A stretch of 39,433 bases of DNA, from NCBI GenBank assembly GCA_905250055.1, contig CAJNOF010000078.1:294340-333772 (forward strand), in the 5' to 3' direction. The position numbers and the translations under genes were made by a program. Below, one piece after another: positions 16,363 through 17,418 of the stretch (positions are counted from its first letter, which is position 1; each line of letters begins with the position of its first letter). Source of the stretch: Rotaria sp. Lineage: Eukaryota. The notes beneath the pieces were generated by a model. It did no database searches, was not told the origin of the DNA, and saw nothing but the letters and a program-made list of their open reading frames with translations.

Positions 16363-17418
16363 CTAGTTTGTTTCGCTTGTTGATATCGATGTTAAATAGA
16401 TAACGTGTTTTTGTTTCTTCTTGTCGAATTCAACACTTTCAATTTTAAAAGATCGTCCCGGTCGTATGAGTACTTCTTCTTCTTCCGGATAATCAGATAG
16501 AGAAGAAATATCCATGTTCAGCGTACTATATGCACTACGTTTTTCAGCAGTCAAAACAAATAAAACATTGCCAAACTGTTCGGCCTTTTCACGATTGAGA
16601 CTACACGATGTAAATGCTTGAAATGACCGTCGTGCATCCTCGCTTCGAGCGACATTTTTATACTCGGTAATCATTTCATTGGTCAATTGAGCACCTCGAT
16701 ACACAGTTTTACCCGTTCGACGATTTAAATTTTCATAAGATAAATAGTAGTAGAGAAGGAAAGCAAAGGGACCTAAAGTTTCTATCTTACTTTGCCAAAC
16801 TTTTTCATGATTCTTGTCACCGATGAGACGCATCGTATGATTTAGAATTTTGTAGAGAAATGATTCAAGGGAATAAAGATAAGTGCAACATTTGCCAATC
16901 TCTTTTGTTGTTTTGTCTTTGACTTTTTCTAACTGTTCAACAATCCATTTAGCTTCTCGTTGCTTTCCGGTTAGTTGTCCTTCATGCAAAATACCCAATA
17001 TTGCTTTCTCTACCATCTCATGTTTTCGCTTTTCCCAGTCTTTTTCAAATTTAAGATCGAAGAATTCCATAAAAGCCTCGATAAAAACCTTTCGGAGTCC
17101 AACTAAATCATGAAACGAACTGGCAGGTACTATCGGATTGGGCATAAAACGTGCTTCTCTCAAGTGTCCTTCATCTCTGTTCATTTCTACTCGCTTTACT
17201 GGACGTTGTTTGCTTTTATCATCATTCGAAATCTGAACTCGATGTTCAAAATCAATATGATAATCGTCGAGAATAACATAGGCTTTCTTCAATTTTGTAA
17301 ATGCTTCTTCGATAATTTTATTTTCAATATCTGAATATGAATTCCATTGAGACGATTCTATGTTTGAAAATGGATTATCATCGGATTTCCAAAACCATTC
17401 GATGCGCTTTTGTGTCAT
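16363..17418 (-). CDS. Intronless 351-aa protein: N-terminal WWE domain (about aa 5-78, 17185..17406) fused to an R-S-E class (cholera-toxin/ecto-ART-like, ARTC) mono-ADP-ribosyltransferase domain (about aa 175-330, 16429..16896). No signal peptide or GPI signal.
   Basis: WWE signature: IEWFWKSDDNPF..SSQWNSYSDIENKIIEEAF..YHIDFEHRVQISNDDKSKQRPVKRV. ART signature: upstream helix CTYLYSLESFLYKILNHTMRL (YT..S..Y..LN..LR type). Catalytic Arg at TVY-R241-GAQL. S-T-S motif at AFT-S271-CSL. E-x-E ARTT-loop motif at DYPEE-E313-E-E315-VLIRPG. The order and spacing (R to S 30 aa, S to E 44 aa) match ecto-ARTs, which have F/YRG, FTSSS and EEEVLIP. The minus-strand AG abuts the ATG (ctgacag|ATG). Third-codon-position GC content looks higher than in SLC12A9. 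Confidence 0.8.
   Translation of the reverse strand: MTQKRIEWFWKSDDNPFSNIESSQWNSYSDIENKIIEEAFTKLKKAYVILDDYHIDFEHRVQISNDDKSKQRPVKRVEMNRDEGHLREARFMPNPIVPASSFHDLVGLRKVFIEAFMEFFDLKFEKDWEKRKHEMVEKAILGILHEGQLTGKQREAKWIVEQLEKVKDKTTKEIGKCCTYLYSLESFLYKILNHTMRLIGDKNHEKVWQSKIETLGPFAFLLYYYLSYENLNRRTGKTVYRGAQLTNEMITEYKNVARSEDARRSFQAFTSCSLNREKAEQFGNVLFVLTAEKRSAYSTLNMDISSLSDYPEEEEVLIRPGRSFKIESVEFDKKKQKHVIYLTSISTSETN

Follow-up and report, generated by a model that had tools for sequence, protein, structure and literature searches.

Gene structure and genomic surroundings

The window analysed here, a stretch of 39,433 nucleotides from Rotaria sp. (contig CAJNOF010000078.1, positions 294,340 to 333,772), harbours on its reverse strand a complete single-exon coding sequence (16363..17418) which, according to the ORF list, starts with ATG, ends with the stop codon at 16363-16365 and encodes a protein of 351 amino acids. 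Pfam profiles recognise both a WWE and an ADP-ribosyltransferase (ART) domain in this protein with scores above the curated cut-offs and well outside the range of chance, which bears out the two-domain architecture proposed in the first-pass annotation. The motifs quoted there are indeed present at the positions claimed, namely WFW (residues 8-10), IEEAF (36-40), YHIDFEHRVQ (53-62) and RPVKR (72-76) in the WWE part as well as YRG (240-242, containing R241), FTSCS (269-273, containing S271) and EEEEV (312-316, containing E313 and E315) in the ART part. Direct reading of the sequence reveals a candidate polyadenylation signal, AATAAA, at 16290..16295 of the same strand, 68-73 nt past the stop codon. 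The start codon is immediately preceded by AG (ctgacag followed by ATG), an arrangement to be expected by chance in 1 of 16 cases, and no match to a presumed bdelloid spliced-leader sequence was found in 17 retrieved loci. The short Logan contigs, with 340-490 nt 5' of the ATG, are genomic.

The identical protein is encoded in three NCBI Rotaria assemblies and, in several independent assemblies, its gene is contiguous with the metazoan genes TIP41 and SLC12. Comparison with the orthologues of Rotaria socialis and Adineta steineri, both of which are intron-free, yields dN/dS values of 0.19-0.24. The gene is thus real, conserved and under purifying selection; a pseudogene or a chance ORF is ruled out by these values along with catalytic residues which are invariant or nearly so. 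About 12 kb away a PARP4-like gene is located on the forward strand, with its PARP catalytic domain at 31042-31458, VIT and VWA domains at 33178-33864 and, as judged from reading the sequence, a BRCT-like ORF at 29414-29701. While the proximity to PARP4 noted in the first-pass annotation is real, it is not conserved, since a tblastx comparison of the window with the R. socialis and A. steineri loci revealed only the WWE-ART gene itself to be shared within 10 kb. A 354-aa ORF at 608-1672, considered as a second copy of the family, turned out to be a tocopherol-cyclase-like gene.

As had been described, the gene lacks introns amid split genes, namely SLC12, TIP41 and the neighbouring PARP4-like gene. 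The idea that it might be a retrogene or a product of horizontal transfer, which had been founded on this feature and on a third-position GC content (GC3) above that of the neighbours, did not hold up. The GC3 of 0.295 does exceed that of the three genes at lower coordinates (TIP41, SLC12 and the tocopherol-cyclase-like gene, located at 608-13371; 0.05-0.08), but not that of the genes at higher coordinates (YrhK-like and PARP4-like, from 16363 on; 0.17-0.33). The shift in composition is regional, with its boundary near 15-16 kb of the window, and a gene-specific anomaly is thereby ruled out. Since both orthologues mentioned above and both paralogues examined are likewise devoid of introns, the intron-free state predates the family, which rules out a processed retrogene. 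By eye, no poly(A) tract is present directly past the 3' end, where only the normal AATAAA is seen, roughly 70 nt past the stop codon. Pattern and tblastn scans, whose reach extends to fairly close relatives only, gave no confirmed match in 185,579 bacterial and archaeal species genomes, in IMG/VR, in phages or in plasmids. Although it is from bacterial toxins that this fold is known best, we consider it highly improbable that a recent retrogene, a recent horizontal acquisition, a contaminant or a dead ORF is at hand. Against these speak the linkage to TIP41 and SLC12, the intron-free relatives, the GC3 equal to that of the neighbours on one side, the lack of a poly(A) tract, the absence of prokaryotic or viral relatives in these scans and a dN/dS of about 0.2, and a recent event is largely refuted. 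It is still conceivable that a bdelloid ancestor acquired the ART domain by a transfer in the distant past.

The WWE domain and the linker

The WWE domain comprises residues 7-76 (17191..17400, reverse strand) and matches the Pfam profile PF02825 with 40 bits against a cut-off of 21.1 (E=5e-10); in addition to the profile match, the WWE fold is present. A candidate ADP-ribose pocket is made up of W10, Y53, Q62 and R72 together with S64, K68 and K70. In the HMM alignment Y53, Q62 and R72, which are retained in 111, 116 and 113 of 116 family members, respectively, map to Y144/Q153/R163 of RNF146 and to Y1658/Q1667/R1676 of HUWE1. The three RNF146 residues and Q1667 of HUWE1, whose numbers were obtained by counting along the alignment, we take to be pocket sites. 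W10 replaces Tyr107 of RNF146 as do W1619 in HUWE1 and W771 in TRIP12, these positions being equated via the shared W-x-W strand motif rather than via a printed alignment. Furthermore, N26 aligns to W114 of RNF146 in the HMM alignment, and the loop between strands 1 and 2 is acidic (KSDDNPFSNIESS). Neither the Tyr107 contact nor the basic distal-phosphate site (R110, W114, K175) of RNF146-type iso-ADP-ribose recognition is found in the rotifer domain.

The phosphate contacts of HUWE1 and the distal contacts of RNF146 have been described, and the WWE domains of HUWE1 and TRIP12 are reported to favour ADP-ribose/ADP above iso-ADP-ribose (PMC11269756). As judged from its residues, the pocket of the rotifer protein resembles the HUWE1/TRIP12 type, which accommodates terminal ADP-ribose, and not the RNF146 type, which accommodates iso-ADP-ribose. 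The designation "PAR reader" used in the first-pass annotation is too specific for a pocket of this type with tryptophan at the Tyr107 position; the domain may well bind ADP-ribose, whereas specificity for PAR cannot be taken for granted. There are WWE domains with ATP/ADP as ligand and others with no ligand at all.

Residues 77-110 (17089..17190, reverse strand) form a linker which is predicted with low confidence (pLDDT 56-70). It contains the family-invariant motif L86-R87-E-A-R90-F91 (17146-17163, reverse strand), in which R87 is present in all of 116 sequences and both R90 and F91 are present in 115. From this motif we infer a possible mode of self-regulation in which the WWE domain, instead of directing the enzyme to PARP products, would read the product of its own enzyme in cis. 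R87 and R90 would serve as pseudosubstrate or auto-modification sites and, once ADP-ribosylated, would be bound in the pocket of the WWE domain, which would turn the enzyme off or on. This would be in line with the invariance of the motif, with its position within a probably flexible inter-domain segment and with a HUWE1/TRIP12-like pocket suited to a terminal or single ADP-ribose; R-S-E enzymes, moreover, often auto-modify. Yet LREARF could equally constitute a structural docking element, and we regard self-regulation of this kind as unlikely.

The pairing of WWE and ART is maintained even in longer variants of the family which carry additional MORN or LamG modules. A hydropathy scan of the 351-aa protein detected neither a signal peptide nor a transmembrane segment nor a GPI-like tail, in accordance with what had been noted earlier. 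In windows of 19 residues the Kyte-Doolittle hydropathy peaks at 0.86, and mean hydropathy is -1.40 for the N-terminal 30 and -0.90 for the C-terminal 25 residues. Only three cysteines occur (177, 178 and 272). These features point to an enzyme which is probably intracellular.

The ART domain

The ART domain matches PF01129 over residues 180-348 with 50.5 bits against a cut-off of 22.3 (E=2.3e-13) and the ADPrib_exo_Tox profile with 28.7 against a cut-off of 23.4; among the matches listed, nearly all of 120 homologues likewise carry a precomputed PF01129 match. In the predicted model it exhibits the split beta-sheet fold of ADP-ribosyltransferases, consisting of a helical N-terminal subdomain (residues 111-228; 16735..17088, reverse strand) and a catalytic beta-sheet core (residues 229-348; 16375..16734, reverse strand). 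The helix reported to lie upstream of the core is present as Y182..Y189..N193..R197 (YLYSLESFLYKILNHTMRL) and aligns to "LYREVNNYLRL" of HopU1, with Y182 conserved in 116, N193 in 114 and R197 in 115 of 116 homologues. The R-S-E triad, characteristic of the cholera-toxin/ecto-ART class, occurs in the proper order, as had been claimed, and each of its residues is kept in at least 115 of the 116 homologues. Arg241 of the Y-R-G motif (codon at 16696..16698, reverse strand; tcg read as CGA) is invariant and lines up with YRG in HopU1 and in Vis, while Ser271 of the STS-like F-T-S-C-S motif (16606..16608, reverse strand; cga read as TCG), which is kept in 115 of 116 sequences, aligns to the serine of "FMSTT" in HopU1 and of "FTSTS" in Vis. 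The E-x-E motif consists of Glu313-Glu314-Glu315 (GAA GAA GAA at 16474..16482, reverse strand) and aligns to "EEE" of HopU1 and "EAE" of Vis; E313 and E315 are retained in all 116 homologues and E314 in 106.

The nearest solved folds are those of the bacterial effectors and toxins HopU1, XopAI, a type VI ART toxin and Vis. HopU1, a type III effector of Pseudomonas syringae (PDB 3U0J), and Vis from Vibrio (PDB 4XZJ) are arginine-specific R-S-ExE mono-ADP-ribosyltransferases. The similarity of their sequences to the rotifer domain is marginal, with E-values of about 2e-3 at best in the PDB profile search (range for HopU1/Vis about 2e-3 to 4e-3). The domain is only remotely related by sequence to characterised enzymes, and substrate specificity cannot be safely transferred from them. 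The E-x-E motif is compatible with arginine specificity although it does not prove it, as E-x-E enzymes also comprise NAD+ hydrolases and DNA-modifying enzymes of the pierisin type. In contrast to HopU1 and Vis, which are secreted and devoid of a WWE domain, the rotifer protein is encoded by the animal's own genome, and orthologues of it occur in different bdelloid genera.

The R-S-E enzymes pierisin, CARP-1 and ScARP raise the question of whether DNA or RNA might be modified in place of arginine, with the WWE domain delivering the ART domain to sites of PARylation, for example breaks in the DNA. Invertebrate and bacterial ARTC enzymes of the pierisin type modify DNA bases (PMC10789625), and bdelloids, whose DNA can be repaired after massive breakage, do so with PARPs that are strongly induced (PMC10809525). 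No pierisin-like structure, however, is present among the best fold matches, the sequence-profile matches are enzymes acting on protein arginine (HopU1, Vis) or an effector with that same fold (XopAI), and the protein does not contain any nucleic-acid-binding domain. Modification of nucleic acids thus seems very improbable to us, and protein arginine is the acceptor we favour.

The vertebrate ecto-ARTs ARTC1-5 share the Pfam ART family PF01129 with the rotifer protein, yet a sequence-profile match to rat ART2.2 (PDB 1GXY) was not obtained at E<=10. The signal peptide, the GPI anchoring or secretion and the extracellular disulfides of these enzymes have no counterpart in the rotifer protein with its three cysteines and its reader domain of intracellular type. 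Known R-S-E ADP-ribosyltransferases of animals are ecto-enzymes or enzymes of the ER lumen.

The bdelloid family and the putative function

At E<1e-30 the WWE-ART family comprises 311 clusters (50% identity), and all of its named members are from bdelloid rotifers; two homology searches with a divergent WWE-ART-MORN protein of an environmental contig as the query likewise retrieved named relatives from bdelloids only. Rotaria sp. Silwood1 alone accounts for at least 17 distinct 90% clusters. The copies are scattered among ordinary genes rather than clustered, and the present gene, with 65-83% identity between genera, is a slowly evolving member of this large, intron-free and dispersed family. 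Its sequences have been public and automatically annotated since a Philodina entry of 2008, labelled "NAD(P)(+)--arginine ADP-ribosyltransferase" or "WWE domain". A full-text literature search, in which reviews of the ART family were incompletely covered, did not retrieve any paper describing the fusion. The pairing of WWE with R-S-ExE therefore appears to be undescribed in papers even though the sequences are public, and the architecture which the first-pass annotation called unusual is so in this sense but, with hundreds of bdelloid copies, by no means unique.

An expansion of this size and its restriction to one lineage would suit effectors of conflict or immunity, in which the WWE domain would sense ADP-ribose as a danger signal of stress or pathogens and the ART domain would disable host or pathogen targets or deplete NAD+. 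The closest solved folds, belonging to bacterial effectors and toxins, fit this notion, as do the WWE domains of the antiviral proteins ZAP and PARP12 (PMC10789625). Furthermore, Adineta vaga and Philodina roseola possess numerous ART-TPR, MAM-ART-TPR and "VIP2"-annotated genes, some of which are flagged as horizontally acquired (PMC10809525 supplement); like the WWE-ART family they carry the Pfam ART domain and occur in these organisms, their partner domains being TPR, MAM or cytidylyltransferase instead of WWE. The slow evolution with a dN/dS of about 0.2, however, is unlike that of an arms-race gene, and the copies are dispersed among ordinary genes. For these reasons we hold a role in conflict to be improbable.

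What we consider reasonably probable is a functional intracellular two-domain enzyme of bdelloids in which a WWE reader guides an R-S-ExE mono-ADP-ribosyltransferase. Arg241 and Ser271 would hold NAD+ in the ART site, and Glu315, together with Glu313, would catalyse the transfer of ADP-ribose, most probably onto arginine side chains. The WWE domain, in which the pocket for adenine and phosphate known from WWE domains that bind ADP-ribose is retained, would most probably dock the enzyme on proteins already ADP-ribosylated, be it at the terminal unit of a chain built by PARPs or at a single unit. Alternatively, the WWE domain might turn the enzyme on when loaded with ADP-ribose; in RNF146, the effector domain is allosterically activated when the WWE domain binds PAR (PMC10789625). 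The result would be a reader-guided second writer of ADP-ribose, and modification of arginine guided in this way is plausible.

The composition of the protein sets it apart from other WWE proteins. In RNF146, HUWE1, TRIP12 and Deltex the WWE domain accompanies a ubiquitin ligase, resulting in PAR-dependent ubiquitination, whereas the rotifer effector is an ADP-ribosyltransferase. In PARP11, PARP12, PARP14, PARP7, ZAP and plant RCD1 it accompanies an ART domain of the H-Y-E (diphtheria-toxin) type, while that of the rotifer protein belongs to the R-S-E branch. The order of WWE, helical subdomain and ART core differs from that of the WWE-PARPs, and the expected acceptor would be arginine instead of Asp, Glu, Cys or Ser. 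To our knowledge, WWE readers have so far been encountered solely beside PARP-type catalytic domains or ubiquitin ligases.

On a wider scale, dozens of intracellular WWE-gated R-S-E enzymes might form a signalling layer specific to bdelloids, which would read ADP-ribose made by PARPs, for instance where desiccation or irradiation has broken the DNA, and respond with mono-ADP-ribosylation of arginine. We put this forward tentatively and deem it rather doubtful. If true, it would imply that the two main branches of ADP-ribosylation chemistry engage in cross-talk, or that the modification spreads from one to the other, which we do not know to have been described in any organism. A conserved intracellular family combining a WWE reader with a toxin-type arginine transferase would represent a new wiring of ADP-ribose signalling, in which one modification recruits or activates a writer of that same modification with a different chemistry. 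The animals hosting the family are noted for surviving desiccation and radiation, and their PARP genes are expanded and strongly induced; in Adineta vaga, desiccation and irradiation are followed by the induction of ADP-ribosylation genes and of numerous PARPs (PMC10809525). For now the proposal is of limited value, since its sequences are in public databases already and all of it except fold and motifs is inferred. As compact proteins of 351 residues encoded by a single exon, such enzymes should be easy to express and simple to test.

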